Positions 19,294 through 61,606 of a DNA stretch of 64,000 bases are shown here, one piece after another. Location of the stretch: the IMG/VR virus record IMGVR_UViG_3300045988_117710. One strand, written 5' to 3'. Each line of letters begins with the position of its first letter. The first letter of the stretch is position 1. Origin of the DNA: a virus. Under the pieces are notes generated by a model that was given only the letters and a program-made list of their open reading frames with translations, was not told the origin of the DNA and did not search any database. The position numbers were made by a program, and so were the translations under genes.

Positions 19294-20488
19294 TGTGGCA
19301 AAGAGTTATCAGTTTACTTTAACTGATAAGTATGTTTCAAGTTGGGGTTATTTAGAAGGTATTCGTGAGTTATTACAGAATGCCTATGATTATGGTAATT
19401 ATGATATTTCTTTTGGTTCTGATTCTATTGTTATTAAGAATTATAATGATAAGATTCAAATTAAAACTTTGTTGATGGGTTATGGGACAAAGACCAATGA
19501 TAAGAATTCTATTGGTGGATTTGGTGAAGGTTTTGTTTTAGCTCTATTGGTTCTATTAAGACAAGGATTTCAAGTTCATATAGAGAATGCTGATGAAGTA
19601 TGGATTCCTTATTTCCAAGAGAGTGAAGAGTTTAATAATGAGAGATTATTCCATATCAATGTTTTAGAGAGTGAAAGTCCAACTGATGATTTGTCTATTA
19701 TTGTAAGTGGTTTTAGTCCTGAACAATTGAATTCTATTCAAGATGAGTTCTTAGGTTTACAAGGAGATTATTCTTCTATTAAGACTTTATATGGTGAAAT
19801 TCTTACTGATCCTAATCAGAAAGGTAAGATGTATGTTGAAGGTTTACCTATTACTACTGATAGAGATTTTGAGTATGGATATAACTTTAAAGCAGAGTAT
19901 GTTATCCTAGATAGAGATAGGAAAGATATTAATCATAAGGAACTTAAGAAGATTACTTCTATGGCAATTGTTCATATGGAGGAAGATAATTTTGATTTTG
20001 TAGATAGTATTGTTGATTCTGGTAAGGAAGATATTTATGCTTTTAATCATAAGGAGATAGAGCTTCCTAAAACTTTTGTTGATAAGTATTCAGACCATTT
20101 AAAGAAGAAGTTTAGTGTTGCTGATACATCAGTTGTTGTTAATAAAACTGATGAGAAGGTTATTAAGGAACTTGAGGATATGGGTGAAGAAGTTGTTACT
20201 GTTGATAGGAAGATTTATGCAGATATTATTAATGAGACTTCTGAATATTCTTATGATAAATATCAACAAGCATCTAAAACTGTTAGTAGTAGAAGTAAGG
20301 TAGATGATGCTTGGATTTATTTTAGAAATAGTACTTATAGTGATTTGTTAGATTGGTTAAAGAAATATGAGTCATTGCTTTCTGAAGAAGCAATTGAAGA
20401 GTATAAGAGTATTATGGAATATAATGAACCTTATTTATTTGAGTTAATTCGTGATGAGGTTTTAGGTGATTCTGATGGGGCGAAATAG
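19286..20488 (+). CDS. GHKL-family (Bergerat-fold) ATPase
   Basis: N-box ELLQNAYDYG and G2-box GGFGEGF. ATG at 19286 after GGAAGGTG; the track start at 19274 is a GTG. Confidence 0.5.
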   Translation: MTSVAKSYQFTLTDKYVSSWGYLEGIRELLQNAYDYGNYDISFGSDSIVIKNYNDKIQIKTLLMGYGTKTNDKNSIGGFGEGFVLALLVLLRQGFQVHIENADEVWIPYFQESEEFNNERLFHINVLESESPTDDLSIIVSGFSPEQLNSIQDEFLGLQGDYSSIKTLYGEILTDPNQKGKMYVEGLPITTDRDFEYGYNFKAEYVILDRDRKDINHKELKKITSMAIVHMEEDNFDFVDSIVDSGKEDIYAFNHKEIELPKTFVDKYSDHLKKKFSVADTSVVVNKTDEKVIKELEDMGEEVVTVDRKIYADIINETSEYSYDKYQQASKTVSSRSKVDDAWIYFRNSTYSDLLDWLKKYESLLSEEAIEEYKSIMEYNEPYLFELIRDEVLGDSDGAK

Positions 20489-21155
20489 GTTCCCAATTGG
20501 GCTTAAATTTCATCATTTAACGGTTATTGAGTATTTGGGTTCACAGGGTGATAAGAATCGTCACACTCGATATAAATGCCTTTGTGATTGTGGTAAAGAG
20601 GTTATCATTCTTTCTCAACATATTGGTAAGCAGAAGAGTTGTGGGTGTGTTCCTCGAAACAATCATAGATACAAATCGTATAATGTTTCAAAGGAGGATA
20701 GTATGAAATTAGTTCGTGAAGCTGCTTTTGAAACAAATTCAAGTAGTACTCATAGTATTACTATGTGTTCTGGATCTGTTTTCGATGATTGGAAGGATGG
20801 TAAGTTAGTTTTTCTTGAAGATGAGGACAAGTTCTTTGTTAAGGGTAGTCGTGAGTTAAGAGATTGGTATGCTAGGTGTGTTTTACGTTATAAGTGTACT
20901 TATGATTGGGATACTAAATTGTATTCAGATGGATCTGCAACTTATACTGAAGATGAGCTTTTCTGCCAAGAGAGATTAGATTCTGTTTCTGAAGAAGATA
21001 TTTCAGAGTATAGAGAAGATGATTGGTATGCATGTCCACTTTCTTACAGTGAGTGGGTTGACTATCGTGGTGAAGGTTATGAGTTATATGAAGAACGTAA
21101 TACCTTTGATGGTGCAGATGTTGTAGCATTTGGTTACTATGGAAATGATTATTAA
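20466..21155 (+). CDS. zinc-ribbon protein fused to, or co-encoding, a member of the FETNSSS-N-terminus family
   Basis: N-terminal half has CxCxCG...CGC. An internal AAAGGAGGA RBS followed by an ATG at 20704 begins MKLVREAAFETNSSSTHS, matching paralogues at 58520-60046. Confidence 0.5.
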   Translation: MILMGRNRFPIGLKFHHLTVIEYLGSQGDKNRHTRYKCLCDCGKEVIILSQHIGKQKSCGCVPRNNHRYKSYNVSKEDSMKLVREAAFETNSSSTHSITMCSGSVFDDWKDGKLVFLEDEDKFFVKGSRELRDWYARCVLRYKCTYDWDTKLYSDGSATYTEDELFCQERLDSVSEEDISEYREDDWYACPLSYSEWVDYRGEGYELYEERNTFDGADVVAFGYYGNDY

Positions 21156-21236: not shown

Positions 21237-22496
21237 ATGAAATTTGCAAAGTTAATTATGATTACTGAAGACAATCACAATAAAGAGTATATAATGACTC
21301 AGATTGATTCTTCAACATTTAAAGCTGAATGGGGTAGGGTTGGTTCTAGTTATCAATCAACTACTTATTCTATGTATGAGTGGGATAGTAAGTACAAATC
21401 TAAAGTTAAGAAAGGTTATAAGGATATATCAAATCTAGTTGAGAAGGTTACTGTAGATGGTGATGTTAAGACTTTACCTTATGACTATATTACTAATAAG
21501 TCTGTCAAGGATATTCTTAATAGATTGTATCAATATACTGATTCTTACTTAAAGGAAAACTACTTAGTTAATACTGTAGATGTTTCCAAAGCACAAATTG
21601 ATGAAGCTTATAAGATTATTGATGAGCTTGAAAGATTAGCTTATTCAAGACATTTAGATGTTCGTGAAGTTAATAGAAATTTAATTAAGTTATTTGAAAC
21701 AATTCCAAGACGTATGTCTAGAGTTAAAGATTATTTATGTGATGATTCTATTACTAAAGATAAGGTTGATGAAAAGATTCGTGCTGAGTTAGATATGCTT
21801 AAGACTATGTCAGATGCTGTTGAGTTAAGACTTAAGAAACAAGCTGCAAGTAAGAAGACTACTAAGGTTGAGAAGTTATCTGAATCTGAACAAAAGGATA
21901 AATTACTTGCTGATCTTGGATTAGTTGTAGAGGATGTAACTGATGAGGATATTAAGTTTATTAAGAAACAATTAGGTGAAAGTTCACACTTATTTAAGAA
22001 AGCTTGGAAGATTACTAATCCTGCTACTGAAAAGAGATTTAATGATTTAGTTGCTACTGATGATTTCAAAGGTAAGGAAGTTAAATATTATTGGCATGGT
22101 TCTAGAAATCAAAACTGGTATAATATTATTCAAACAGGATTAACTGCTAATCCTAAGGGTGTTAAGATTACTGGTAAGATGTTTGGTTATGGTATCTATT
22201 TTGCACCTAAAGCAAAGAAGAGTGTTAACTATACTTCTCTTGAAGGTTCTTATTGGGCAAGTGGTAATGATAAGAGTGGGTTCATGGCTTTATTCGAAGT
22301 TGCTATGGGTAATGTGTTAGATGTTTATGATCATCATTACTGGTGTTCAAGAACTAACAAAGAAGAGATGTGGAAACATAACAAGTGTCATACTTTATAT
22401 GCTCACGAAGGTAGAGGTTTCTTATACAATGATGAAGTTATTGCATATGATGATGCACAAGTTAATATTAAATATATAGTGGAGTTGAGTAGATAA
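21237..22496 (+). CDS. PARP-like ADP-ribosyltransferase (WGR domain plus PARP catalytic domain)
   Basis: WGRVGS motif near the N-terminus. C-terminus YWHGSRNQNW..TGKMFGYGIYFAPKAKKSVNY...LYNDEVIAYDDAQVNIKYIVEL is near-collinear with the PARP1 catalytic signature including the H-Y-E residues. Real ATG at 21237 (AAAGAGG RBS); the track ORF runs upstream through the promoter. Confidence 0.75.
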   Translation: MKFAKLIMITEDNHNKEYIMTQIDSSTFKAEWGRVGSSYQSTTYSMYEWDSKYKSKVKKGYKDISNLVEKVTVDGDVKTLPYDYITNKSVKDILNRLYQYTDSYLKENYLVNTVDVSKAQIDEAYKIIDELERLAYSRHLDVREVNRNLIKLFETIPRRMSRVKDYLCDDSITKDKVDEKIRAELDMLKTMSDAVELRLKKQAASKKTTKVEKLSESEQKDKLLADLGLVVEDVTDEDIKFIKKQLGESSHLFKKAWKITNPATEKRFNDLVATDDFKGKEVKYYWHGSRNQNWYNIIQTGLTANPKGVKITGKMFGYGIYFAPKAKKSVNYTSLEGSYWASGNDKSGFMALFEVAMGNVLDVYDHHYWCSRTNKEEMWKHNKCHTLYAHEGRGFLYNDEVIAYDDAQVNIKYIVELSR

Positions 22497-49266: not shown

Positions 49267-50934
49267 ATGGTTAATGTTTTCTTTATTAGTGATTTACATC
49301 TTAATCATGGCAATATTATTGATTATTGTGATCGTCAGTTTAATAGTATTCAGGAGATGAATGATACTATTGTTAGGAATTGGAATAGTGTTGTAGGTCC
49401 AGATGATATAGTTTATTTTCTAGGTGATTTTGCTTTAGGTAGAGATGTAGATAAGGTTTATGAGGAGTATTCGAAGCTTCTGAATGGCACTATCTATTTC
49501 TTAAGAGGAAATCATGATAAGTCTAGATCTGTTGTATCTAGGTATTTTAATTTAATCGATACAGGTACGACTGTTTCTTATAATGATTCTCATTTCATTC
49601 TTTCCCATCATCCTTTATATGATTCAGAGATTCCTAAGGGATATGTTAATCTTCATGGTCATATTCACAATAACAAGTTGAGTAGGGTTTATGATTCTGG
49701 ATGTCATTTTAATGTTTCTGCTGATGTTACTGATTTCACACCATATTTCGTAAAGAATATTATAGATGATATTTCCTCTGGTTCTTTAGTTCCAAAGAGA
49801 ACTGGGGTTGATAGAGTTAGGAAGGATGATGGTAGTATGAGAAAGTTAGCTACAGTGCAAACTATTTTAAATGTTGAACCTATACCTGATGCTGATGCAA
49901 TTGAGGTTGTTACAGTTAAGGGTTGGAAGGTTGTTGTAAAGAAGGGTGAGTATCAAGTTGGTGATAAGGTAGTTTATTTCGAAATTGATTCACTTATTCC
50001 AAGAAGTTCAATAACAGAGTTTTTGATGGAAGATGAGTATATGTTGTCTGCTAGATTAAGAACTAGAAAATTAAGAGGTCAAGTATCTCAAGGTTTAGTT
50101 ATTTCTTTAGAAGATTCTCTTGTTATGGCTGAAGAGTTAAATGGTGCTGTTGAGTTATTTGATACTGATGATGGTACAGATGTTTCTGATTTACTTCATG
50201 TTGAGAAGTATGAACCACCTGTTACTTATGGTAACGAGGGTAGATGTGTTGCTTGGCCATTTACATTGACTAAAACTGATGAAGAGAGAATTCAAAATAT
50301 TCCTGAAGTTATTGATAAGTTGATCGAGAATGGAACTCATTTATGTATTTCAGTTAAGTTAGATGGTACTTCTATGACTGTAGTACATCAACCAGATGGT
50401 ATTCATGTAGCTGGTAGAAACAATGATTTTGATAAGACAGATGATTTTGCTTTCAATAATAAGTATTGGTCTACAGCTCGAAGATATGGTGTTACAGATG
50501 CTTTAGAAGAAGCCCATATAAATAATCCAGACAAATACTTTGCTGTTCAAGGTGAGTTAGTTGGTCCTGGTATTCAAGGTAATAAGATGAATTTATCAGA
50601 TTTGAATTATTATATCTTTAACTTATTTGTTTCTGAAGATGAATGCAGAACTTGGAAGAAGTTAGGTTATGAAGAATTAGTTCAGTTCTGTATTGATTAT
50701 GATCTTACTCATGTTCCTTATATTTATTCAGATTTCGAATTGAAGGCACATGGTTTAGTAGATGTTGATAGTATTCTTAAGTTTGCGGAAGGTACTTATA
50801 GAGATAATGCCGAGGGTTATTTCCCAAATGCTAAAGCCAATCAACAAAGAGAGGGGTTAGTGTTTAGAACTCTTGATCATCAATTCTCTTTTAAGGTTGT
50901 TAATAATATCTTCTTACTTAAGGGAGGAGAATAA
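49267..50934 (+). CDS. metallophosphoesterase fused to a nucleotidyltransferase-family (RNA/DNA) ligase domain
   Basis: N-terminal DLHLNHG, GDF and GNHD. C-terminal motif I KLDGTS. AAGGAGG RBS. Confidence 0.6.
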   Translation: MVNVFFISDLHLNHGNIIDYCDRQFNSIQEMNDTIVRNWNSVVGPDDIVYFLGDFALGRDVDKVYEEYSKLLNGTIYFLRGNHDKSRSVVSRYFNLIDTGTTVSYNDSHFILSHHPLYDSEIPKGYVNLHGHIHNNKLSRVYDSGCHFNVSADVTDFTPYFVKNIIDDISSGSLVPKRTGVDRVRKDDGSMRKLATVQTILNVEPIPDADAIEVVTVKGWKVVVKKGEYQVGDKVVYFEIDSLIPRSSITEFLMEDEYMLSARLRTRKLRGQVSQGLVISLEDSLVMAEELNGAVELFDTDDGTDVSDLLHVEKYEPPVTYGNEGRCVAWPFTLTKTDEERIQNIPEVIDKLIENGTHLCISVKLDGTSMTVVHQPDGIHVAGRNNDFDKTDDFAFNNKYWSTARRYGVTDALEEAHINNPDKYFAVQGELVGPGIQGNKMNLSDLNYYIFNLFVSEDECRTWKKLGYEELVQFCIDYDLTHVPYIYSDFELKAHGLVDVDSILKFAEGTYRDNAEGYFPNAKANQQREGLVFRTLDHQFSFKVVNNIFLLKGGE

Positions 50935-50935
50935 T

Positions 50936-51730
50936 ATGAAGTATTTATTTCACTTCGCTATGATGAAGGAGTGTCCTACTGAGTTTATTAAGTTACCAGA
51001 AGGTGTACATGATGATTTAAGTGGAGATGATATTGTAGGTTTATTTGATACCATTTATCCTAATATTAAGTTTTGGGTTTCTGGTGTTGGATGCAATAAT
51101 GTCCTTTATCCTGATTATGAAGTGGTTAATTATCTTAAGACTTGTGATTATGTTTATAGTTTTGGTTTATCTGGTTCTATTAATGATAATCTTAAAGTTG
51201 GAGATTTGGTTAATGTTCATAGTGTTAATAATCTAGATGTTAAGATGCCTGGGTATGGATTAGGTTGTACTGATGATTTTGATGCAGATTGTTTAGGTTG
51301 TTCAAAGTCTAATCTTACAGCTTTATCTGATTTTAATACTAGGGTTATCTGTTATACTTCTAATCGATTTGTTACGAAGGAGTATTTAGATTTCTTATTT
51401 GGTGATAATTCTGATGATAATTTAGATGATTTCTATGATGATGCTTTTAATGTAGCATTTGATGAGAATGTGATTACTTCTTTAGCTTTAGGTTTTATTG
51501 ATGAACCAAAGAAAGATTGTATAGTTTGTGAGATGGAACTATTCTATCTTAAGAAGTTTGTTGATATTATTAATAAGTCTTGTCCTGTATGTGCTTATAA
51601 GTTAGTTTCTGATATAGTATGTAAACCTGATAATTATGAAGAGTATGAAGGTTCTTTACAAACTCTATTATCTAGTTTACATTTTGCTGTAGGAGCTGCT
51701 GTTAAGGAGTTAGGTTCAGATGGAGAATAG
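50936..51730 (+). CDS. PNP/MTAN-family nucleosidase or phosphorylase-like protein
   Basis: VSGVGCNNV and FGLSGSIN..LKVGDLV resemble the SGIGKVNAA and GTAGGL..VGDVV motifs of MTA/SAH nucleosidases. GGGAGGAG RBS then ATG; the track ORF is extended upstream. Confidence 0.4.
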   Translation: MKYLFHFAMMKECPTEFIKLPEGVHDDLSGDDIVGLFDTIYPNIKFWVSGVGCNNVLYPDYEVVNYLKTCDYVYSFGLSGSINDNLKVGDLVNVHSVNNLDVKMPGYGLGCTDDFDADCLGCSKSNLTALSDFNTRVICYTSNRFVTKEYLDFLFGDNSDDNLDDFYDDAFNVAFDENVITSLALGFIDEPKKDCIVCEMELFYLKKFVDIINKSCPVCAYKLVSDIVCKPDNYEEYEGSLQTLLSSLHFAVGAAVKELGSDGE

Positions 51731-52220
51731 TATGAAGGTTCAGTTAGCAGATATTACTTTTGATTCATGTGTAGATGGTCCTGGGTTAAGAACTGTTGTG
51801 TGGTTGTCTGGGTGTTCTCATAGATGTCCAGAGTGTCATAATGAACGTTTACAGGATTTCCATTATGGTTATTCCATGGATGTTAATGAGTTAGTTGATA
51901 CTTTATCTAGTTCGAAGAGGATAACTTTCTCTGGTGGTGATCCATTGTTTCAAGTGAATGCTTTAGATGAGATTATTGGTTCTCTTGATCCAGAGACAGA
52001 CATTTGGATTTATACTGGTTTTACTTTAGATAAAGCCAAGGAGATTCTGATGGATAAGCCAAATCTTAGAGAGTCTGAATTTACTATTAAGTGTGGTAAG
52101 TTTGATAAGAGTCTTAAGGATCCTAGTTGTAAGTTTAGGGGTTCTAGTAATCAAAGGATTTATCATTATATTAATGGTATCTTTACTGATATCTCTGACA
52201 AGATTGATAATAGAAAATAA
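51720..52220 (+). CDS. nrdG: anaerobic ribonucleotide reductase activating protein (NrdG-type radical SAM activase)
   Basis: VDGPGLRTVVWLSGCSHRCPECHN, FSGGDPL and DPSCKFRGSSNQRIYHY are collinear with E. coli NrdG. Confidence 0.7.
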   Translation: MENSMKVQLADITFDSCVDGPGLRTVVWLSGCSHRCPECHNERLQDFHYGYSMDVNELVDTLSSSKRITFSGGDPLFQVNALDEIIGSLDPETDIWIYTGFTLDKAKEILMDKPNLRESEFTIKCGKFDKSLKDPSCKFRGSSNQRIYHYINGIFTDISDKIDNRK

Positions 52221-52221
52221 G

Positions 52222-52247
52222 GGAAAGTTTAGTTGACTTTCCTTTTT
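52222..52247 (+). terminator. intrinsic terminator after nrdG
   Basis: GGAAAGT/ACTTTCC stem plus TTTTT. The loop and 3' arm contain TTGACT. Confidence 0.6.
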
Positions 52248-52261
52248 ATTTATCGTATTAT
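52233..52261 (+). promoter_or_regulatory. promoter TTGACT-N17-TATTAT(AAT)
   Basis: -35 lies in the terminator loop/3' arm. Confidence 0.6.
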
Positions 52262-52279
52262 AATATAGAGGTGAATGGT

Positions 52280-52528
52280 ATGTATTCTCATAATTATAAA
52301 GGTTTACCTTATAAGCAAAGTGTTAAGCGATTTGAGAAGGATTATCGTATTAGATATTGTTTGTATGGTAAGTATTCCAAATGGAGAACTGCTTCTGGGA
52401 AGAAGATTCGAGTTAAGGATTTAGATTATCACCATTTAATTAATATTGTTAATTATTTTGGGAATACAAAGATTCGAAATGATTATCCATTTGTTTGGTA
52501 TAGATATGTGAAAGAGGTGGTATTGTGA
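52280..52528 (+). CDS. small hypothetical protein
   Basis: Consensus promoter at 52233-52261. AGAGGTGAA RBS then ATG at 52280. Confidence 0.5.
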   Translation: MYSHNYKGLPYKQSVKRFEKDYRIRYCLYGKYSKWRTASGKKIRVKDLDYHHLINIVNYFGNTKIRNDYPFVWYRYVKEVVL

Positions 52529-53565
52529 AGAAGTTCACAGCAACAGTTTTAATGGGTTATCCTGGTTCTGGTAAGACTAGAGCAAGTTCTTATAAGCATT
52601 TAAGAACTAATGATGCTTTATATCTATCTTCTGATGATTTAAGAGTAGAGATGTTTGGTTTCAGAGATCAGGAGCATAATAAGGAGTTATTCGAAGAGTT
52701 ATATAAGAGAGCAATCAATTATTCTGATAAGGGAGATGTTTTAATTGATTCTACAGCTCTTACTAGAAAAGATAGATTGAGGGTTATTGCAAAGCTTGGT
52801 AAGTACTTCAATATGAGATTAGTAGTAGTTGTCAGACCTATTTGGGAGATTGTGGAGGAGAATCAAATCAGAAAGGTTTCTAAACCTGAAGAGTATATTC
52901 CTGAACCAATCTTTAAACAGATTCTTGGTAGATTTCAATTACCTACTTATGATGAGGGTTGGGATGAGATTAGTTTTTGTTTCAATTCTTCTATTGAAGA
53001 ACATAATGATCCTAATCTATTATTAAAATGTTTTTATGATTTAGATAAGGTTGAAGATATTGCACATGATAATCCACATCATCCAGAGTCAATCAAGGAA
53101 CATGTTAATTATGTTTTAGGTAAGGTTAAGGAAGAGACATCAAGTTTTGTATTAGAGTCTATTGCTTATTATCATGATTTAGGTAAATTTTATGTTATTC
53201 AGTATAATGAAGAGAAAGGATATTCTCAATGTATTGGTCATGCAGCTGTTTCAGCTTATATCTATTTGACAGATTTCTTGATTAGGGCTGTTTTAGATTC
53301 TATTGAGAAAGATGACTTTACTAATCCTTTTAGTAATTTAGAGTTTCTTTTAATTTATTATGGAGTGTTCTATCATGATTATCCTTATTCATTTACTGAT
53401 TTTGAAGATATGGTTAGTTCTTTAAGTAAACCTAGTAAACCATTGATTCATTTATTTAAAAATCTTAATGATGGTTTAGTTGGTATTTCTATGAGAGAGT
53501 TTACAAGAATGTTAATAGATTTTAATTGTTATGATAGAATGAGGGAAGGTGATTCAGATGAATGA
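52525..53565 (+). CDS. bifunctional P-loop polynucleotide-kinase-like domain plus HD phosphohydrolase domain
   Basis: Walker A VLMGYPGSGKT. C-terminal H..HD motif (HHPESIKEH ... YYHDLGK). Confidence 0.55.
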   Translation: MKKFTATVLMGYPGSGKTRASSYKHLRTNDALYLSSDDLRVEMFGFRDQEHNKELFEELYKRAINYSDKGDVLIDSTALTRKDRLRVIAKLGKYFNMRLVVVVRPIWEIVEENQIRKVSKPEEYIPEPIFKQILGRFQLPTYDEGWDEISFCFNSSIEEHNDPNLLLKCFYDLDKVEDIAHDNPHHPESIKEHVNYVLGKVKEETSSFVLESIAYYHDLGKFYVIQYNEEKGYSQCIGHAAVSAYIYLTDFLIRAVLDSIEKDDFTNPFSNLEFLLIYYGVFYHDYPYSFTDFEDMVSSLSKPSKPLIHLFKNLNDGLVGISMREFTRMLIDFNCYDRMREGDSDE

Positions 53566-54358
53566 GAGTATTCTGAAGGCATTAGATATTCTTGAGTCTA
53601 GAGGATATAATGTAGTTTATTTAGGATATTATGGTGCTCATAATTATAATCTTAATGATGAGCAATCTGATTATGATTTTAAAGCCATTGTTATTCCTAC
53701 TCTTAAGCAGTTGATTAAGAGAGATGTTATTTCAACTACTATTGAGTGTGAGTTTGGTAATATTGATGTTAAGGATTTACTTACATTTACAACTAATATG
53801 AATAAGGGAAACTTTAGTTATATTGAGTCTTTACATTCTAATTACTTTTTAGACTTTGGAGAAGCTTTTCTAGGAATTTCTATTAGGGATTTGTTTAAGG
53901 ATGTTAAGGTTAATTGGATGTCTATGGTTGGTGCTATTTATGAGAAGAGAAAAGCTCTTACTCATGAGTATCCTAGTAAAACTGCAGAGTTTGAGAAGTT
54001 TGGTTGCGATCCTAAACAGTTCTTACAAGCAATTCGTTTGTTTGATATTCTTCGTAGAAGAAGTAAGGATGTTGAGAATTATAATAAGTCATTTGAGACT
54101 TATTCAGATGATGGAGTTCAGTTTGAGTTAGTTGAATTTGAATCTGAAGCAAGTAGTAGAAAGTATGAGTTTTCTCATCAGGATTTAATTGCTATGAAGA
54201 GAGGTTTATTAATGCCTCTAGATGAGACTATTAGAATATTTGATTATATTCAAGTTAAGGCAAGAGATTATATTTCTAAAGATTATAAGTTTGAACCTTT
54301 AGATTATACTGATGAGGTTATTGACTTATTAGTGACTTATTTTAAGAACAATTTATAG
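53558..54358 (+). CDS. Pol-beta-superfamily nucleotidyltransferase
   Basis: G[GA]x9SDYDF motif (YLGYYGAHNYNLNDEQSDYDF). GGGAAGG RBS then ATG at 53558. Confidence 0.45.
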   Translation: MNESILKALDILESRGYNVVYLGYYGAHNYNLNDEQSDYDFKAIVIPTLKQLIKRDVISTTIECEFGNIDVKDLLTFTTNMNKGNFSYIESLHSNYFLDFGEAFLGISIRDLFKDVKVNWMSMVGAIYEKRKALTHEYPSKTAEFEKFGCDPKQFLQAIRLFDILRRRSKDVENYNKSFETYSDDGVQFELVEFESEASSRKYEFSHQDLIAMKRGLLMPLDETIRIFDYIQVKARDYISKDYKFEPLDYTDEVIDLLVTYFKNNL

Positions 54359-54366
54359 GAGGATTT

Positions 54367-54969
54367 ATGTTAAAGATAGGATTTGTTGGTGCACCACAAA
54401 GTGGTAAGTCTAGTTTGATTGAGTATTTGAGAAATTTATTAAAGGATGAGTATCAAGTGGTTATTGCTGATGAGCCACCAACAATTCTTTTGAAGGTAGG
54501 GTTGGATCCTGCATCTGGAGTTATTTCTAGTTTGGATTTTCAGAAGGAGTGTTTATTAGAGTATCATAATGTTTATGAGAGAATTTCGAAGTATTCTAGT
54601 GTTTATTCTAACTCTGATAAACCTACAATTGTTTTAATGGATACTTTACCAGAGATTGGGAAGTGTTATCTTAATGATGAAGAGACTAAGGTGTGGGAAG
54701 AGCATTACAATCTTTTCTGGAGAAATAATGTTGTGTTTGAAACTTTCAAACCAGATATTATATTCAATCTTGAGTTATTACAAGGAGAGTTTTCTACTAA
54801 GGGTAATGCTGTTCGTAGAGACTTAGATGTTGAGTATATTCTTTCTATTGATGAGAAGATTTGCAATACTTATCCTTCTGCTATTAGATTAGCAAATGAT
54901 ATTGGTATCGAAGAAAGAGCCAATGAAGTAGCAGATATTATTGATTCTGCTTTAAGAAATCAAAATTAA
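54367..54969 (+). CDS. P-loop kinase, deoxynucleoside-kinase-like
   Basis: IGFVGAPQSGKSS..(20 aa)..ADEPP arrangement typical of the dNK family. Arg-rich lid VRRD. AGGAGGA RBS. Confidence 0.4.
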   Translation: MLKIGFVGAPQSGKSSLIEYLRNLLKDEYQVVIADEPPTILLKVGLDPASGVISSLDFQKECLLEYHNVYERISKYSSVYSNSDKPTIVLMDTLPEIGKCYLNDEETKVWEEHYNLFWRNNVVFETFKPDIIFNLELLQGEFSTKGNAVRRDLDVEYILSIDEKICNTYPSAIRLANDIGIEERANEVADIIDSALRNQN

Positions 54970-56984: not shown

Positions 56985-57000
56985 TTTATAGGAGGTTCAG

Positions 57001-57363
57001 ATGTTTAGATTATTTTATAGAATTCAAGATTACTTTAGTAAGTATGAAAGACATATGAGAAGAGTTCGTAGATTCTACAATAATCCTGCCAAGGAAGAGA
57101 CTTGGAATCTGGACCTTCATATTGTTGAATTCTTAATTCCTCGTTTAGAGTTGTTTATTGAGGATTCAAGTAGGATAGTTGATTGGGATTCAGATGATGA
57201 ACATAGGAAAGTTAAAGATTATATTCCTATGATAGTATCTGATTTCCGATTCTATCTAGATAATTATGATTCTGATGATATTGGGGTTTGGAAGAAATCT
57301 CAAGAAAAGGTTAAAGAAGGGTTTAGTTTACTTTCCGAGATTTATTGTATGCTTGGATGGTAG
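57001..57363 (+). CDS. hypothetical protein
   Basis: TAGGAGG RBS. Confidence 0.55.
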   Translation: MFRLFYRIQDYFSKYERHMRRVRRFYNNPAKEETWNLDLHIVEFLIPRLELFIEDSSRIVDWDSDDEHRKVKDYIPMIVSDFRFYLDNYDSDDIGVWKKSQEKVKEGFSLLSEIYCMLGW

Positions 57364-57412
57364 TTTCTATTTATATATTAAATTAGTATATAGAGTTTAG
57401 AGGAGAAGGTAT

Positions 57413-57604
57413 ATGGCAGTTTTATATCAAGGATCCAATTTTGTGAAGTTTAATGAATTTAAGGATTCTGAAGGGAATATTCTTACTTTTGTTAAGAATA
57501 CAAAGAATGGTAAGTTATTTTCTACTAAGAATGGTTATGTAACTCTTACTGAATCACAAGCAAATAGTTTAGTGTTAAATAAGGGTAGTAAGAAAAGTAA
57601 ATAA
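57413..57604 (+). CDS. small basic protein
   Basis: AGAGGAGAAGG RBS. Confidence 0.5.
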   Translation: MAVLYQGSNFVKFNEFKDSEGNILTFVKNTKNGKLFSTKNGYVTLTESQANSLVLNKGSKKSK

Positions 57605-57629
57605 GCCAAATTGAAATGAGGTGTTTTGA

Positions 57630-58517
57630 ATGGTTTATGTAAATGGAAATGCAACTGTTTCTATTGATGACAATGGGAGAAGAGTTGTTGAGTGGCCAGA
57701 TGGTGAGGATTTAAGATTAGAGTATCCTTTAAGTATTGATTTAAATATTTCTAATAGATGTTCTAATGGCTGTACTTATTGTTATGCTGGTAATACTCCA
57801 ACTGGTAGGGTTGCAGATTTCTTGACAATGAATTACTTGGATGATATGTTAGCTGGTAGTGAGATTGCTATCAATATTCAATATCCTTTACCAGAGAATT
57901 TTGAGTTCTGGTTAGAGAAGATGAAGAAGCAAGGTGTAATTGTTAATGCTACTATTAATCAATTAGATTTTGAAAGAGATGAAGCTATTATTGATCAGGT
58001 AGCTGATTGGCAAGATAGAGGTTTATTACATGGTATAGGTATTTCATATCGAAGTAATAATTACATTTATGATAAGATAGGGAAACTTAAGAATGTTGTT
58101 ATTCATATGATTGTTGGTATTCATACTCTTGAAGAGATTAGAGCAATGTTATTGAATTATAATGTTTTAGTTCTAGGTTATAAGTTCAAAGAGCGTGGAA
58201 TTACTTATAGTCAAATGAATCAGTTTGTTTCTTCTAGTATTGAGATGTTAAAGCTTCGTGCTGACGAACTTCTTAAGAGTGTTGGTCGTGGGGTTTTATG
58301 CTTTGATACTAAGGCGGTTGAACAGCTTGAACTTAAGAATCATTTATCTGAAGAAGATTGGAATACTTATTATCAAGGTGATGAGGGAACAATTTCATTT
58401 TACATAGATGGTGTCAAAGGTACTTTTAATACTGATTCTCATACTAATGATGAACCAATTCCTATTGATGGAATGTGTATTAAAGATATGTTTAGAGTAA
58501 TAAGAGAGAAGGTGTAA
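57630..58517 (+). CDS. putative radical SAM enzyme
   Basis: CSNGCTYC (CxxxCxxC) cluster at aa 43-50. Confidence 0.4.
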   Translation: MVYVNGNATVSIDDNGRRVVEWPDGEDLRLEYPLSIDLNISNRCSNGCTYCYAGNTPTGRVADFLTMNYLDDMLAGSEIAINIQYPLPENFEFWLEKMKKQGVIVNATINQLDFERDEAIIDQVADWQDRGLLHGIGISYRSNNYIYDKIGKLKNVVIHMIVGIHTLEEIRAMLLNYNVLVLGYKFKERGITYSQMNQFVSSSIEMLKLRADELLKSVGRGVLCFDTKAVEQLELKNHLSEEDWNTYYQGDEGTISFYIDGVKGTFNTDSHTNDEPIPIDGMCIKDMFRVIREKV

Positions 58518-58519
58518 TA

Positions 58520-58996
58520 ATGAAGGTAGTTCGTGAAGGTGTATTTGAAACTAATTCAAGTAGTACTCATAGTTTAGTTTGTGCAAGAAGTATGAGTCCT
58601 GAAGAGTATGTTCCAAATAATTCAACTATTAAAGTTAAGTTTATTGATACTGATGATTTAACTTCTTTACGTACTTTAGCAGAGAAAGTTTCTTATTTAG
58701 TTTCTCATATTGTTAATGGTTATAAGTATAATGCAGCTACTTATGAGAATTTGATAGAAGATGTTAAGAATTCATGGTCTTTTAAGAAATTAAATTACTA
58801 TGTTGAAGAGCATTATAATAAAAGTATAGTATTTCCTGAATCCTATAAGGGAGATTTAGAGGAAATAGTTAATATCAATCATCAATTGATTGAGAGTGAT
58901 TTCGATTCTTTATGTAAAGATATTGTTAGTGAAGATAGAGATTACTTAGGTGAGATTTTATCACCAGATAAAAGTATTGATTTTGGAAGGGATTGA
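58520..58996 (+). CDS. FETNSSS-N-terminus family protein, paralogue 1
   Basis: Begins MKVVREGVFETNSSSTHSL. AGAGAGAAGGTG RBS. Confidence 0.6.
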   Translation: MKVVREGVFETNSSSTHSLVCARSMSPEEYVPNNSTIKVKFIDTDDLTSLRTLAEKVSYLVSHIVNGYKYNAATYENLIEDVKNSWSFKKLNYYVEEHYNKSIVFPESYKGDLEEIVNINHQLIESDFDSLCKDIVSEDRDYLGEILSPDKSIDFGRD

Positions 58997-59610
58997 TTTA
59001 TTTGAAAATTATTCGTGATGGTGTGTTTGAAACTAATTCAAGTAGTTCACATAGTTTAGTCATTAAGAAGAGAACTAAACCTAGGGTTAATGATATTCCT
59101 AGAGGTGTGGAATCATTTCTAGTTAATGAGTATGGTGTTTGTTGTTGCTCTGATGAGTCTGTTGATATTAATCGTCATTATACTCAAGTAGCGAAGTTAT
59201 CTTTTCTACTTAATATGTTAGCAACTGTTTGTAACTATTGTCAAGATTGGGATTTAATGTTTAAAGATTATTCTTATGATGACTATAGATCAGCAATCAA
59301 TAAATACGAGTATATGACTCAGTTCTGGGAAGAGATGATTAATTCACCATATTTTACAATTCTTCAAGATGTTGTATTTGAAGAAACAGGAACTCATATT
59401 GAGTTTGCTCGTCCTGATTCAGATGATATTCCATTCTATGATTGTGTTTATACTGATGATGGTGATGTGGATGAGTTATTAGGTTTTGATATCAAGAACT
59501 TTGATGCTGAATCTTATAAGAAGAGACTTAAAGAAATTCTATTTGATGAGGATATGGTAATTATTGATGCAAGTATTCCTTATGGAATAGAAGGTGATTG
59601 GGATGTCTAA
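58993..59610 (+). CDS. FETNSSS-N-terminus family protein, paralogue 2
   Basis: KIIRDGVFETNSSSSHSL. TTG or internal start overlapping the upstream stop, GGAAGGG RBS. Confidence 0.55.
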   Translation: MIYLKIIRDGVFETNSSSSHSLVIKKRTKPRVNDIPRGVESFLVNEYGVCCCSDESVDINRHYTQVAKLSFLLNMLATVCNYCQDWDLMFKDYSYDDYRSAINKYEYMTQFWEEMINSPYFTILQDVVFEETGTHIEFARPDSDDIPFYDCVYTDDGDVDELLGFDIKNFDAESYKKRLKEILFDEDMVIIDASIPYGIEGDWDV

Positions 59611-60046
59611 TAAGAAGATTCGTGAAGGTGTATTTGAAACTAATTCGAGTTCTAGTAATTCTTTATCAATTGAGTCTTGGAGAGATGATTTAGTGGTTCC
59701 AGAAAGATTATCTTATGTTGAGCTTGAGATGGGAAGAACTTTTGAACACAAGGGTTATGATGAAAGATTTACTGTTTTGTTAAGTCTTTGTGATTCTGCT
59801 GATGATGTGTTTAAGCTTTGTTACAAGTGTTATAAGTTTGGTGTTAAGGAGATAGTTTTACCTAATCCTGATAACTATACTTGTTATGGCAATTCTGATT
59901 ATATTCATGTTTCTGCAGGTGAGATAGATGATTCTGAATATGAACTTCGTGAATGTTTGAAAGATGATGAACTTCTTAAGGGTTGGTTGTTTAATCCAGA
60001 TTCTGAAGTATCTGGTCAAGATGATAATTATTTATGTGATTGGTAG
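59603..60046 (+). CDS. FETNSSS-N-terminus family protein, paralogue 3
   Basis: MSNKKIREGVFETNSSSSNSL. GAAGGTGA RBS then ATG at 59603. Confidence 0.55.
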   Translation: MSNKKIREGVFETNSSSSNSLSIESWRDDLVVPERLSYVELEMGRTFEHKGYDERFTVLLSLCDSADDVFKLCYKCYKFGVKEIVLPNPDNYTCYGNSDYIHVSAGEIDDSEYELRECLKDDELLKGWLFNPDSEVSGQDDNYLCDW

Positions 60047-60053
60047 TGATTAT

Positions 60054-60302
60054 ATGAAGGATTTTAAATTGAAGTGGTACAATTTTCTAGGATTCTTTCG
60101 TTCTGGTTTAGCAAAAGATGTTTTATTAGGATATAGGAAGAGTTCTGGTGAACCTGTTAAGTGTCCTCATTGTAAGTGCAAGAAGTTGGAGACTTATGAG
60201 ACTTTCAGACATGATCAGGGTTTTGTTGAAGAATATTGGGTTAGATGTAGTAAGTGTAAAGAACACGTTGGTACTTGGGCTTACGGATCTTGGATGTTAT
60301 AA
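60054..60302 (+). CDS. zinc-ribbon protein
   Basis: CPHCKC and CSKCKEH. The track ORF is extended upstream; ATG at 60054 follows the upstream stop. Confidence 0.45.
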   Translation: MKDFKLKWYNFLGFFRSGLAKDVLLGYRKSSGEPVKCPHCKCKKLETYETFRHDQGFVEEYWVRCSKCKEHVGTWAYGSWML

Positions 60303-60324
60303 GATGCTATAAAGCATCTTTTTA
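60302..60324 (+). terminator. intrinsic terminator
   Basis: AGATGCT/AGCATCT stem plus TTTTTATTT. Confidence 0.65.
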
Positions 60325-60335
60325 TTTCGTATAAT
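60319..60335 (+). promoter_or_regulatory. promoter, TTTTTATTTCGTATAAT
   Basis: -10 at 60330-60335. Confidence 0.5.
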
Positions 60336-60356
60336 GTTTTAGAAGGAGATGGTTAT

Positions 60357-60842
60357 ATGTATACGAATACTGAGATGTATCAACACGCGAAGTTAGAATT
60401 AGATAAGTTGTTAGAACTTGAGAGAAAGGATAATCTTAAACGTTCTGTAGAAGAGTTAGAGAACGAAGTTGCAATGTTTGATGGCAAGACTCCACAAGAG
60501 TTTATGAATGATGCTATTCTTAATGTTATTGCTTCTATCAATTCAGAAATTAATTCTTATAATTCTATGGATTATTTACTTAATACTGTTTATGATTTAG
60601 TTAAGTTTAGAAATCTTACACCACTTACTTTAGGAGATGAAGAGTGGGTTCATGTTTTAGATGATCCTGATAGAGGAAGTGTTTATCAGAATATTAGAAA
60701 CTTTGCAGTGTTTAAAGATGACAAGAATGGTGTATATCATTCTGATGGACAAGAGATGCTTAATATTGCTTGTGGTAAGTATCCAGAGTCTGGTGAAGTA
60801 ATGGAAGTTTATCAAGATAATGAAGGAGAGTCTAATGAGTAG
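60357..60842 (+). CDS. hypothetical acidic protein
   Basis: Promoter at 60330-60335, AGAAGGAGATGG RBS. Confidence 0.55.
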   Translation: MYTNTEMYQHAKLELDKLLELERKDNLKRSVEELENEVAMFDGKTPQEFMNDAILNVIASINSEINSYNSMDYLLNTVYDLVKFRNLTPLTLGDEEWVHVLDDPDRGSVYQNIRNFAVFKDDKNGVYHSDGQEMLNIACGKYPESGEVMEVYQDNEGESNE

Positions 60843-61131
60843 TTTTAATACAGATTGTAAAATCTTTAAGGAGTTCAAGGGTGAACTTCAAGTTGATGGG
60901 ATGAACATATATACTCCAGAAGTGGTTCAATTTCGTCTTTACACTGATCCAAATACTACAGATGGGTATTTGTTCTATGTGTTTCCAATAACTGCAGGAA
61001 TGGCTTTATTTGGGGATTATTTTGTGCTTAATCAGAAGGATTGTGTAGCTGTAATTACTAAGGGTGATATTGAAGATATGTTTAGAGGAACATTTACTCG
61101 TTCAATTACTGCTGACATTTATAATAATTAA
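60835..61131 (+). CDS. hypothetical protein
   Basis: AAGGAGAG RBS then ATG at 60835. Confidence 0.5.
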   Translation: MSSFNTDCKIFKEFKGELQVDGMNIYTPEVVQFRLYTDPNTTDGYLFYVFPITAGMALFGDYFVLNQKDCVAVITKGDIEDMFRGTFTRSITADIYNN

Positions 61132-61234: not shown

Positions 61235-61606
61235 ATGTTAGGTAATTTTATTGTAGATTTTTTAAATGATTCTTATACTTTTAGTAGACCACTTTCTAAT
61301 AAGGTTAGTGCTTATAAGAGAGACTATGAAGATAAGATAACTATTATTCAAGAAGCATATGGTGTTTCTGAAGATAATATTTCAGTTGAAGTTGTTAAGG
61401 AATATGGAGCTGCTTTTCTAAAGGTTAAGGGTTCTACTAAGAATGATGTTCTTAATGCAACTTTTGAGTTTAGCAATTCTTTTAGAATTGATCCTGATAC
61501 AATTAAGGAAATTAATTATAAGTCTAAAGATGGACTTCTTTATATAGATTTGGTTAAGAAAGAACCAGAGAAACCATCTATCAAAATTAGTAAGGTAGAA
61601 GAATAG
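61235..61606 (+). CDS. hypothetical protein (weak Hsp20/alpha-crystallin-like features)
   Basis: AAGAGGAG RBS. Beta-rich pattern ending LYIDLVKKEPEKPSIKI. Confidence 0.45.
   Translation: MLGNFIVDFLNDSYTFSRPLSNKVSAYKRDYEDKITIIQEAYGVSEDNISVEVVKEYGAAFLKVKGSTKNDVLNATFEFSNSFRIDPDTIKEINYKSKDGLLYIDLVKKEPEKPSIKISKVEE

Follow-up and report, generated by a model that had tools for sequence, protein, structure and literature searches.

What does a nearly invariant peptide do at the head of phage proteins that otherwise differ? The question is raised by a 64,000-nucleotide stretch of viral DNA, IMG/VR record IMGVR_UViG_3300045988_117710 (this whole stretch is the window), in which four small genes, p1 to p4, begin with the same peptide of about 20 residues, the tag. 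An initial annotation of the DNA had noticed this family and likened the tag to a capsid-targeting signal, to the delivery domain of polymorphic effectors, or to a DNA cassette for exchanging C-terminal modules. Unmentioned there, and key to the family, was the gene directly upstream of p1 at 57630-58517, which encodes a radical S-adenosylmethionine (rSAM) enzyme. Tag and enzyme form a module, consisting of one single-cluster rSAM enzyme and at least two unrelated protein classes that have only the tag in common. We hold with moderate confidence that the enzyme recognises, and most likely modifies, the tag of p1-p4 and their kin.

One tag on two classes of body

The positions first given for the three tandem genes and the distant fourth copy were correct, save that p4 starts at 20703 and not 20704. 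The genes of the module in the window, and the segments encoding the tag, are as follows.

57630-58517, + strand: dedicated rSAM enzyme, 295 amino acids (aa), cluster motif CSNGCTYC (CX3CX2C)
58520-58996, + strand: p1, putative client of type A, 158 aa, isoelectric point (pI) 4.8, N-terminus MKVVREGVFETNSSSTHSL
59002-59610, + strand: p2, putative client of type A, 202 aa, TTG start, pI 4.3, 6 Cys, N-terminus (M)KIIRDGVFETNSSSSHSL
59603-60046, + strand: p3, putative client of type A, 147 aa, pI 4.3, 6 Cys, N-terminus MSNKKIREGVFETNSSSSNSL
20703-21155, + strand: p4, putative client of type B, 150 aa, pI 4.2, MKLVREAAFETNSSSTHSI ... VVAFGYYGNDY
58520-58582, + strand: tag-coding segment of p1, first 21 codons, DNA pattern match
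59002-59064, + strand: tag-coding segment of p2, DNA pattern match
59603-59671, + strand: tag-coding segment of p3, with two extra N-terminal residues, DNA pattern match
20703-20765, + strand: tag-coding segment of p4, DNA pattern match

The four N-termini follow the pattern M-K-x-[IV]-R-[ED]-x-x-F-E-T-N-S-S-S-[ST]-[HN]-S, with R5, F9, E10, T11, N12, S13-15 and S18 common to all, while the logo of the wider family reads M-K-x-I-R-x-G/N-V-F-E-T-N-S-S-S-T-H-S-L/I-x-I (as a synthetic peptide, MKVVREGVFETNSSSTHSLVCA). A degenerate DNA pattern for R-x3-F-E-T-N-S-S-S matches the window at exactly the four tag sites, and none of 100 dinucleotide-preserving shuffles. In 203 distinct tags no variation occurs at R5, F9, E10, N12 and S13-15, conservation of T11 and H17 stands at 98%, and position 7 is Gly in just 89. 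The tag is strictly N-terminal, since in 461 of 479 distinct members the distance from start codon to Phe is exactly 8 or 9 codons. This family start agrees with the TTG at 59002 as the beginning of p2, for which the mechanical open reading frame (ORF) begins at 58993. The last 8 nt of p2 lie within p3; p3 is also atypical in having two extra N-terminal residues, and Asn (SSSSNS) at the position where 98% of the family have His, and may be a non-modifiable or decoy copy.

Searches of Pfam, NCBIfam and PADLOC with p1-p4 and with canonical members of both body types assigned no family. The only match was a weak one to PHROG 28997, of unknown function (E 9.5e-5 to 1.3e-4 for p1-p3, 0.018 for p4), which in p3 and p4 spans little beyond the tag region. 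Among GenBank phages, neither blastn of the region nor tblastn of p1 gave a match.

For a comparison of the bodies, the 230 fetched loci supplied 479 distinct tagged proteins, which were clustered after removal of their first 24 residues. Two large groups resulted: type A, with 253 members of about 179 aa, holds p1, p2 and p3, and type B, with 134 members of about 125 aa, holds p4. A hidden Markov model (HMM) of tag-less type-A bodies, from whose building the window sequences were left out, detects p1 (E 4e-18), p3 (8e-10) and p2 (3e-7), with p4 at 0.15; the type-B HMM finds p4 (E 3e-15), with p1, p2 and p3 not significant. Both p1 and p2 head conserved subfamilies, of 70 (alignment A3) and 23 sequences (A4), whose profiles align over 135 columns (E 5e-20), and still over 110 columns (E 1.9e-5) when the first 20-22 residues are taken away. 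Hence the bodies of p1-p3 are divergent homologues, because the tag-less profiles still align and the type-A HMM detects all three. Types A and B, when compared with hhalign, align in the first 25 columns only (E 4e-20), and removing the tag lowers the probability to 1.9%. The tag is therefore carried by unrelated bodies, with the split falling between p1-p3 and p4.

The family as initially described survives this comparison in part. Four ORFs do share the tag, it belongs to no described domain, and it is portable, heading type A, type B and a type-A protein with an inserted beta-propeller. The view that all the bodies are unrelated holds for p4 and fails for p1-p3. All four proteins are acidic, as stated (pI 4.2-4.8, against a family median of 4.6); one had been called Cys-rich, and six Cys are found in both p2 and p3. 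The propeller-bearing protein (L068:5903-7261, also in L069) has 452 aa, and its seven blades are near-identical repeats of about 45 aa that separate the part with the tag and GEFGWE from the C-terminal part with DH...TGNDN...YYKGN. The median length in the tagged family is 162 aa.

Conservation beyond the tag differs between the types. Canonical type A, which includes gp130 of Microcystis phage Ma-LMM01 and one of five tagged ORFs of the Lak-A1 megaphage, has extra invariant motifs: GEFGWE, K-x-S-Y-L, G-Y-[IV]-D-H, T-G-N-D-N and a C-terminal Y-Y-K-G-N. In p1 the counterpart of TGND is the C-terminal ...FGRD, and N-H-Q is retained. In type B the tag residues alone are invariant, followed by a conserved C-terminal V-V-A-F-G-x-Y-G-x-D. 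The extreme C-termini are conserved in canonical type A (...YYKGN-COOH) and in type B (...AFGxYG[YN]D[GY]-COOH), in alignments A7 and A8 respectively.

AlphaFold2 (AF2) models built from the subfamily alignments are confident for p1 (pLDDT 83.8, pTM 0.81) and p2 (pLDDT 83.7, pTM 0.80), with a broadly similar order of strands and helices. The tag, although the most conserved part, mostly has pLDDT below 50 (residues 1-14 in p1, 1-24 in p2), in keeping with a peptide that lies exposed and requires a partner. Sequence and profile searches of the PDB with A3, A4, A7 and A8 returned nothing significant, and no match to the type-A body was detected among solved structures or BFVD models.

These features bear on one alternative, in which the tagged proteins are themselves enzymes or ligand binders, the tag (through its E, N, S, S, S and H) serving as a loop that catalyses or binds metal or phosphate together with the DH and GND of type A, and the rSAM enzyme being a neighbour in the same pathway that makes or consumes the same small molecule or modified nucleotide. 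The invariant residues of canonical type A are enzyme-like (R7, E12, N14, S15-17, H19, Y58, H107 and N140-D141-N142), and the His of the tag (H17/19) adjoins the first confidently modelled strand. Nevertheless, we consider this account improbable. The same loop heads the unrelated type B, where nothing else is invariant; AF2 leaves it unpacked against the domain; no fold or sequence match links the bodies to known enzymes; and many type-A paralogues, such as p2, are without DH and GND, yet never without the tag.

That selection acts on the peptide and not on the DNA follows from the codons of the three invariant Ser, which family-wide use TCN and AGY in all eight combinations, each in 27-99 members. 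This is difficult to reconcile with a recombination cassette, in which shared 5' DNA would serve to shuffle C-terminal modules. In the window the 5' ends are certainly similar: they had been put at about 85% identity, and over a 44-nt core they show 82-91% identity to p1, though other pairs reach down to 73% (pairwise 32-40 of 44, or 73-91%), and p1, p2 and p4 have identical Ser codons (TCA-AGT-AGT). Pairs of type-A and type-B genes also agree in their Ser codon classes more often within a locus than between loci (26% vs 13%), so that the sequences allow for occasional gene conversion of the 5' end, though not as an organising principle. However, 74% of within-locus A-B pairs differ, the bodies are not shuffled modules but members of a few conserved classes, whose genes keep a fixed order, A-B-rSAM, and, for homologous exchange to be efficient, a mismatched stretch of 44-60 nt is short. 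We give the cassette almost no credence.

Linkage to a radical-SAM gene

The rSAM gene is the first of the operon and ends 2 nt ahead of p1. Its product matches phrog_16999, 'Fe-S oxidoreductase' (E 8e-29), and only weakly PF04055 (19.4 bits against a gathering cut-off of 29.5), a family that nonetheless matches 34 of 40 aligned homologues at E <=0.01 (best E 2e-10). In this alignment (A5) three Cys alone are invariant, C44, C48 and C51, and the enzyme therefore has no SPASM domain, twitch domain or auxiliary cluster. NCBIfam maturase models match its N-terminal SAM-cluster region only, far under their cut-offs, and the other weak similarities are generic to rSAM enzymes, extending to peptide and protein maturases, MoaA, viperin, QueE and activases. 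At two loci (L017:3650-5662 and L192:3629-5704) the rSAM gene is split by an intein with a LAGLIDADG homing endonuclease (PF14890, PF14528), which supports the importance of the enzyme, as inteins typically sit in important, conserved proteins.

The association of tag and enzyme was evident from both directions. Firstly, among IMG/VR loci fetched with the tag alone, 61 of 78 have an rSAM homologue adjacent on the same strand. Secondly, the same adjacency occurs in 56 of 67 tag-fetched GTDB contigs, mostly from gut and rumen bins of metagenome-assembled genomes. These homologues mostly score E <1e-75, and many of the tag-fetched loci without one come from contigs that are short or in which the match lies close to an end. 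Thirdly, of 80 loci fetched by homology to the enzyme alone, drawn from 521 IMG/VR relatives, 78 have, on the same strand and no more than about 3 kb away, between one and six FETNSSS ORFs, and both of the others are truncated contigs. Fourthly, the two genes can be joined in frame: an rSAM::client fusion occurs in two independent samples (L024/L025:7104-8465), where an rSAM part of about 297 aa runs through ...NLSKQ-RRVVRHSLFETNSSS into a tag at residue 306 that has no Met of its own. Tandem client::client fusions occur as well, and in both kinds of fusion the tag is internal. The linkage is close to obligate both ways. No third universal gene emerged from the neighbourhoods, where every other gene is confined to about 20% of loci or fewer.

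The number of tagged ORFs per locus runs from one to nine, in line with the variable copy number that the initial annotation had proposed to look for in related phages. The commonest operon is A-B-rSAM (66 of 198 loci), and 131 of the 198 contain both types; the window is arranged as rSAM-A-A-A, with its B gene, p4, 37 kb away. In GenBank phages, tblastn with a 35-aa tag found the Lak megaphages, at three to five places per genome, and the Ma-LMM01 group. Lak-A1 encodes a 295-aa rSAM homologue (CREMCQFC) followed directly by its five tagged ORFs. In Ma-LMM01 the tagged gp130 is two genes from gp128, an rSAM protein annotated 'Fe-S oxidoreductase'; the intervening gp129 resembles a phage ProQ C-terminal domain (PF24203, E 7e-15), and gp131, annotated 'histidyl tRNA synthetase', has no Pfam match. 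The carriers range from 550-kb Lak megaphages to a cyanophage and to gut phages from Firmicutes and Bacteroidota genome bins. An exhaustive HMMER search yielded 2,940 client clusters (50% identity) at E <=1e-3, none with a Pfam domain or a name, and the rSAM relatives are likewise nameless. A literature search on the tag motif and on phage or viral radical-SAM enzymes, including those of Ma-LMM01 and megaphages, found nothing relevant.

Neither delivery function first suggested for the tag is supported. As a capsid-targeting sequence (CTS), like that of the T4 internal proteins, it would be cut by the prohead protease after ...VFE, and the proteins would be packaged and injected. The likeness to T4 IPI-III and Alt lies in a short conserved N-terminal peptide on otherwise dissimilar small phage proteins; moreover, the tag is strictly N-terminal, the proteins are small, acidic and encoded beside a homologue of the anti-defence protein Tad3, and 'G-V-F-E' formally resembles the hydrophobic-x-Glu sites of T4 gp21, the prohead protease. 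A CTS is not supported, however, since the partner of the tag is the rSAM gene and not any head or protease gene. It is also longer, at about 20 aa, and invariant across unrelated lineages, among phages with unrelated morphogenesis modules. Although V-F-E formally fits a peptide of about 10 aa with a hydrophobic-x-Glu end, conservation continues through TNSSSTHS, 8-10 residues beyond the putative cleavage site, and internal copies are tolerated in fusions. Capsid targeting thus appears very improbable. A delivery domain of polymorphic effectors fares no better, as there were no toxin, immunity or PADLOC matches and the bodies, encoded in a fixed operon, belong to conserved families.

A stronger alternative draws on the same linkage and the same fusions. 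The tag, itself unchanged, may dock types A and B to the rSAM enzyme or to each other as non-catalytic or specificity subunits, with the paralogues directing the enzyme to differing targets (for instance host proteins, RNA or nucleotides). The A-B-rSAM operon does resemble a three-subunit enzyme, a common tag with divergent bodies has the logic of an adaptor, and the RNA-repair and cysteine-desulfurase-like genes nearby could indicate the real substrate. Docking peptides, though, usually co-evolve and drift, whereas ten polar residues of the tag (E-T-N-S-S-S-T-H-S plus R5) are near-invariant from cyanophage to Lak megaphages, as is more often seen at a chemical site, and the acidic bodies (median pI 4.6) are poorly suited to binding nucleic acid. 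We regard such a holoenzyme as a serious though rather unlikely explanation.

The tag as a putative site of radical chemistry

In the mechanism we favour, p1-p4 would be clients of the phage rSAM enzyme. The tag would form the flexible beginning of folded acidic proteins, belonging to at least two unrelated classes; the enzyme would recognise this peptide and change one of its residues by 5'-deoxyadenosyl-radical chemistry; and one maturase would serve many clients, with a single enzyme maturing all tagged proteins of the genome. What we infer is that the enzyme physically recognises the tag, that it would alter the peptide and not simply dock with it, and which residue it would change. Judged by their invariance, the candidate residues are R5, F9, E10, N12, S13-15 and H17, and among possible products are a cross-link, a protein-derived cofactor, and a Ser that has been epimerised or oxidised. 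More tentatively, we suggest an undescribed maturation system of large phages, in which a minimal single-cluster rSAM enzyme puts a radical-derived modification in a universal N-terminal Ser-rich tag on at least two folds for which solved structures gave no detectable match, amounting to RiPP-like chemistry (that of ribosomally synthesised and post-translationally modified peptides) on whole folded proteins in about 3,000 client clusters.

Several observations weigh against modification of the tag. Firstly, canonical type A has further invariant polar residues (GW, Y, DH, GNDN and KGN), whose conservation suggests an enzyme or ligand site of its own, to which the tag may contribute. Secondly, most peptide-modifying rSAM enzymes have an RRE (RiPP recognition element), SPASM or twitch domain, and this one has none of them. 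Thirdly, the low pLDDT of the tag is possibly a failure of modelling. Fourthly, some tagged genes are remote from the rSAM gene, among them p4 and the single-copy loci L037, L039, L042 and L060. Finally, the RNA-repair genes near the module would fit RNA as the substrate of the enzyme too.

Systems of a known kind, in which an rSAM enzyme has dedicated protein clients, offer partial parallels. In RiPP systems, as here, an rSAM gene adjoins tandem genes (one to nine in these phages) with a common N-terminal peptide and differing downstream parts, one enzyme serves many clients, and enzyme::client fusions occasionally occur. Yet the proteins here have 100-260 aa, are confidently folded (AF2 pTM 0.80-0.81) and fall into at least two conserved classes rather than being short peptides; it is the conserved part that has the look of the chemical site; the enzyme has CX3CX2C only, with neither SPASM/twitch Cys nor a recognisable RRE; and the genes are encoded by large phages, with no linked protease or exporter. 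The module is therefore not a RiPP system, as it has no SPASM or RRE and no short precursor.

Anaerobic sulfatase-maturating enzymes (anSMEs) convert a Ser or Cys of sulfatases to formylglycine. The resemblance is that one rSAM maturase serves many paralogous folded clients with a short Ser-containing motif near the N-terminus, and by analogy the modified residue of the tag could become a catalytic group, as in sulfatases. The phage proteins, however, are of about 160 aa and in two unrelated classes, and the two auxiliary clusters of anSME are absent from the phage enzyme. Having no (C/S)xPxR motif and no sulfatase/alkaline-phosphatase fold in its clients, the module is not an anSME/sulfatase pair.

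The activases of glycyl radical enzymes (GREs), such as PFL-AE with PFL (pyruvate formate-lyase) or NrdG with NrdD of phage T4, are likewise small single-cluster rSAM proteins of about 300 aa that act on a flexible segment of a folded protein, with a precedent in phage. Their site is C-terminal rather than N-terminal, though, and neither the RVxG motif nor the GRE barrel is present here. With no invariant Gly in the tag, this is not a GRE pair. The components of the module are an uncharacterised rSAM subfamily and two putative client domains that lack detectable relatives.

The module is large and wholly unannotated, comprising about 2,940 client clusters and more than 500 rSAM loci in IMG/VR, and it is found in many phage contigs from gut and rumen as well as in Lak megaphages and the Ma-LMM01 group. 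Were the tag modified, this would constitute a new radical-SAM protein modification, with two client domains without detectable structural relatives, and would give a role to an rSAM subfamily so far annotated only 'Fe-S oxidoreductase'. The short invariant tag provides a handle for genome mining and a substrate for biochemistry.

Operon boundaries and neighbouring genes

From the rSAM gene through p1, p2 and p3 to a small zinc-ribbon ORF, no gap or overlap between neighbouring genes exceeds 8 nt, and p4 has a zinc-ribbon fragment upstream.

60054-60302, + strand: small basic zinc-ribbon ORF closing the operon, weak Zn-ribbon Pfam matches
60301-60320, + strand: terminator-like hairpin and T-run, the sole terminator-like site in 57000-60900
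20466-20702, + strand: HNH-endonuclease-like zinc-ribbon remnant (phrog_374, E 1e-15, residues 4-120 of a 229-aa ORF)

The zinc-ribbon ORF is an uncertain member of the system; in a related contig, L001, an 83-aa ORF occupies the same position. The hairpin, judged by its sequence, is the likely end of the rSAM-p1-p2-p3 operon. As for p4, it had been described as lying inside or fused to a zinc-ribbon ORF, and the HNH-like remnant does read into it in frame with no stop codon between, but p4 has its own Shine-Dalgarno sequence, AAAGGAGG, 7 nt ahead of its ATG. The read-through is kept in the relatives P0025 and P0041 and absent from the homologue P0033, and the remnant is probably not part of the tagged family. 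No tRNA genes were found in the window.

Immediately downstream of p4 is a PARP catalytic-domain gene (21180/21243-22496, + strand; PF00644 E 1.3e-21 in 21243-22496; phrog_23333), whose product has an N-terminal EWGRVGS stretch that is WGR-like in look. In L001 a PARP gene is directly upstream of a type-B client, and hence B and PARP genes are neighbours in this phage clade. Just past the operon terminator, at 60357-60842 (+), lies the homologue of Tad3, the type I Thoeris inhibitor (PF25185, E 2e-20, above the gathering cut-off), and L001 likewise has a Tad3 gene a few kb from the module.

Upstream of the module, 49267-54969 (+) holds an RNA-repair-like set, consisting of a phosphoesterase and RNA ligase fusion (phrog_547/968), an AAA_33/KTI12-like kinase resembling polynucleotide kinase, an RlaP-like nucleotidyltransferase and an AAA_28 protein. 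Related genes, for Thg1, RNA ligase, kinase/HD and RlaP, are found repeatedly near the module (19-42 of about 230 loci); each of Thg1, RNA ligase, AAA_33/HD kinase, RlaP nucleotidyltransferase and a class-V aminotransferase is found in just 8-18% of loci. The last of these, cysteine-desulfurase-like (PF00266, E 3e-60), is near the rSAM module at L132:3000-4166 and at 36 other loci, and would possibly supply Fe-S clusters or sulfur to the enzyme. From these non-universal neighbours (Tad3, PARP and RNA repair), the module may have a role in host takeover, or in RNA repair and counter-defence. Further downstream in the window, 61235-61606 (+) has a weak Hsp20/alpha-crystallin-like match (PF00011, E 8e-4), just under the cut-off.

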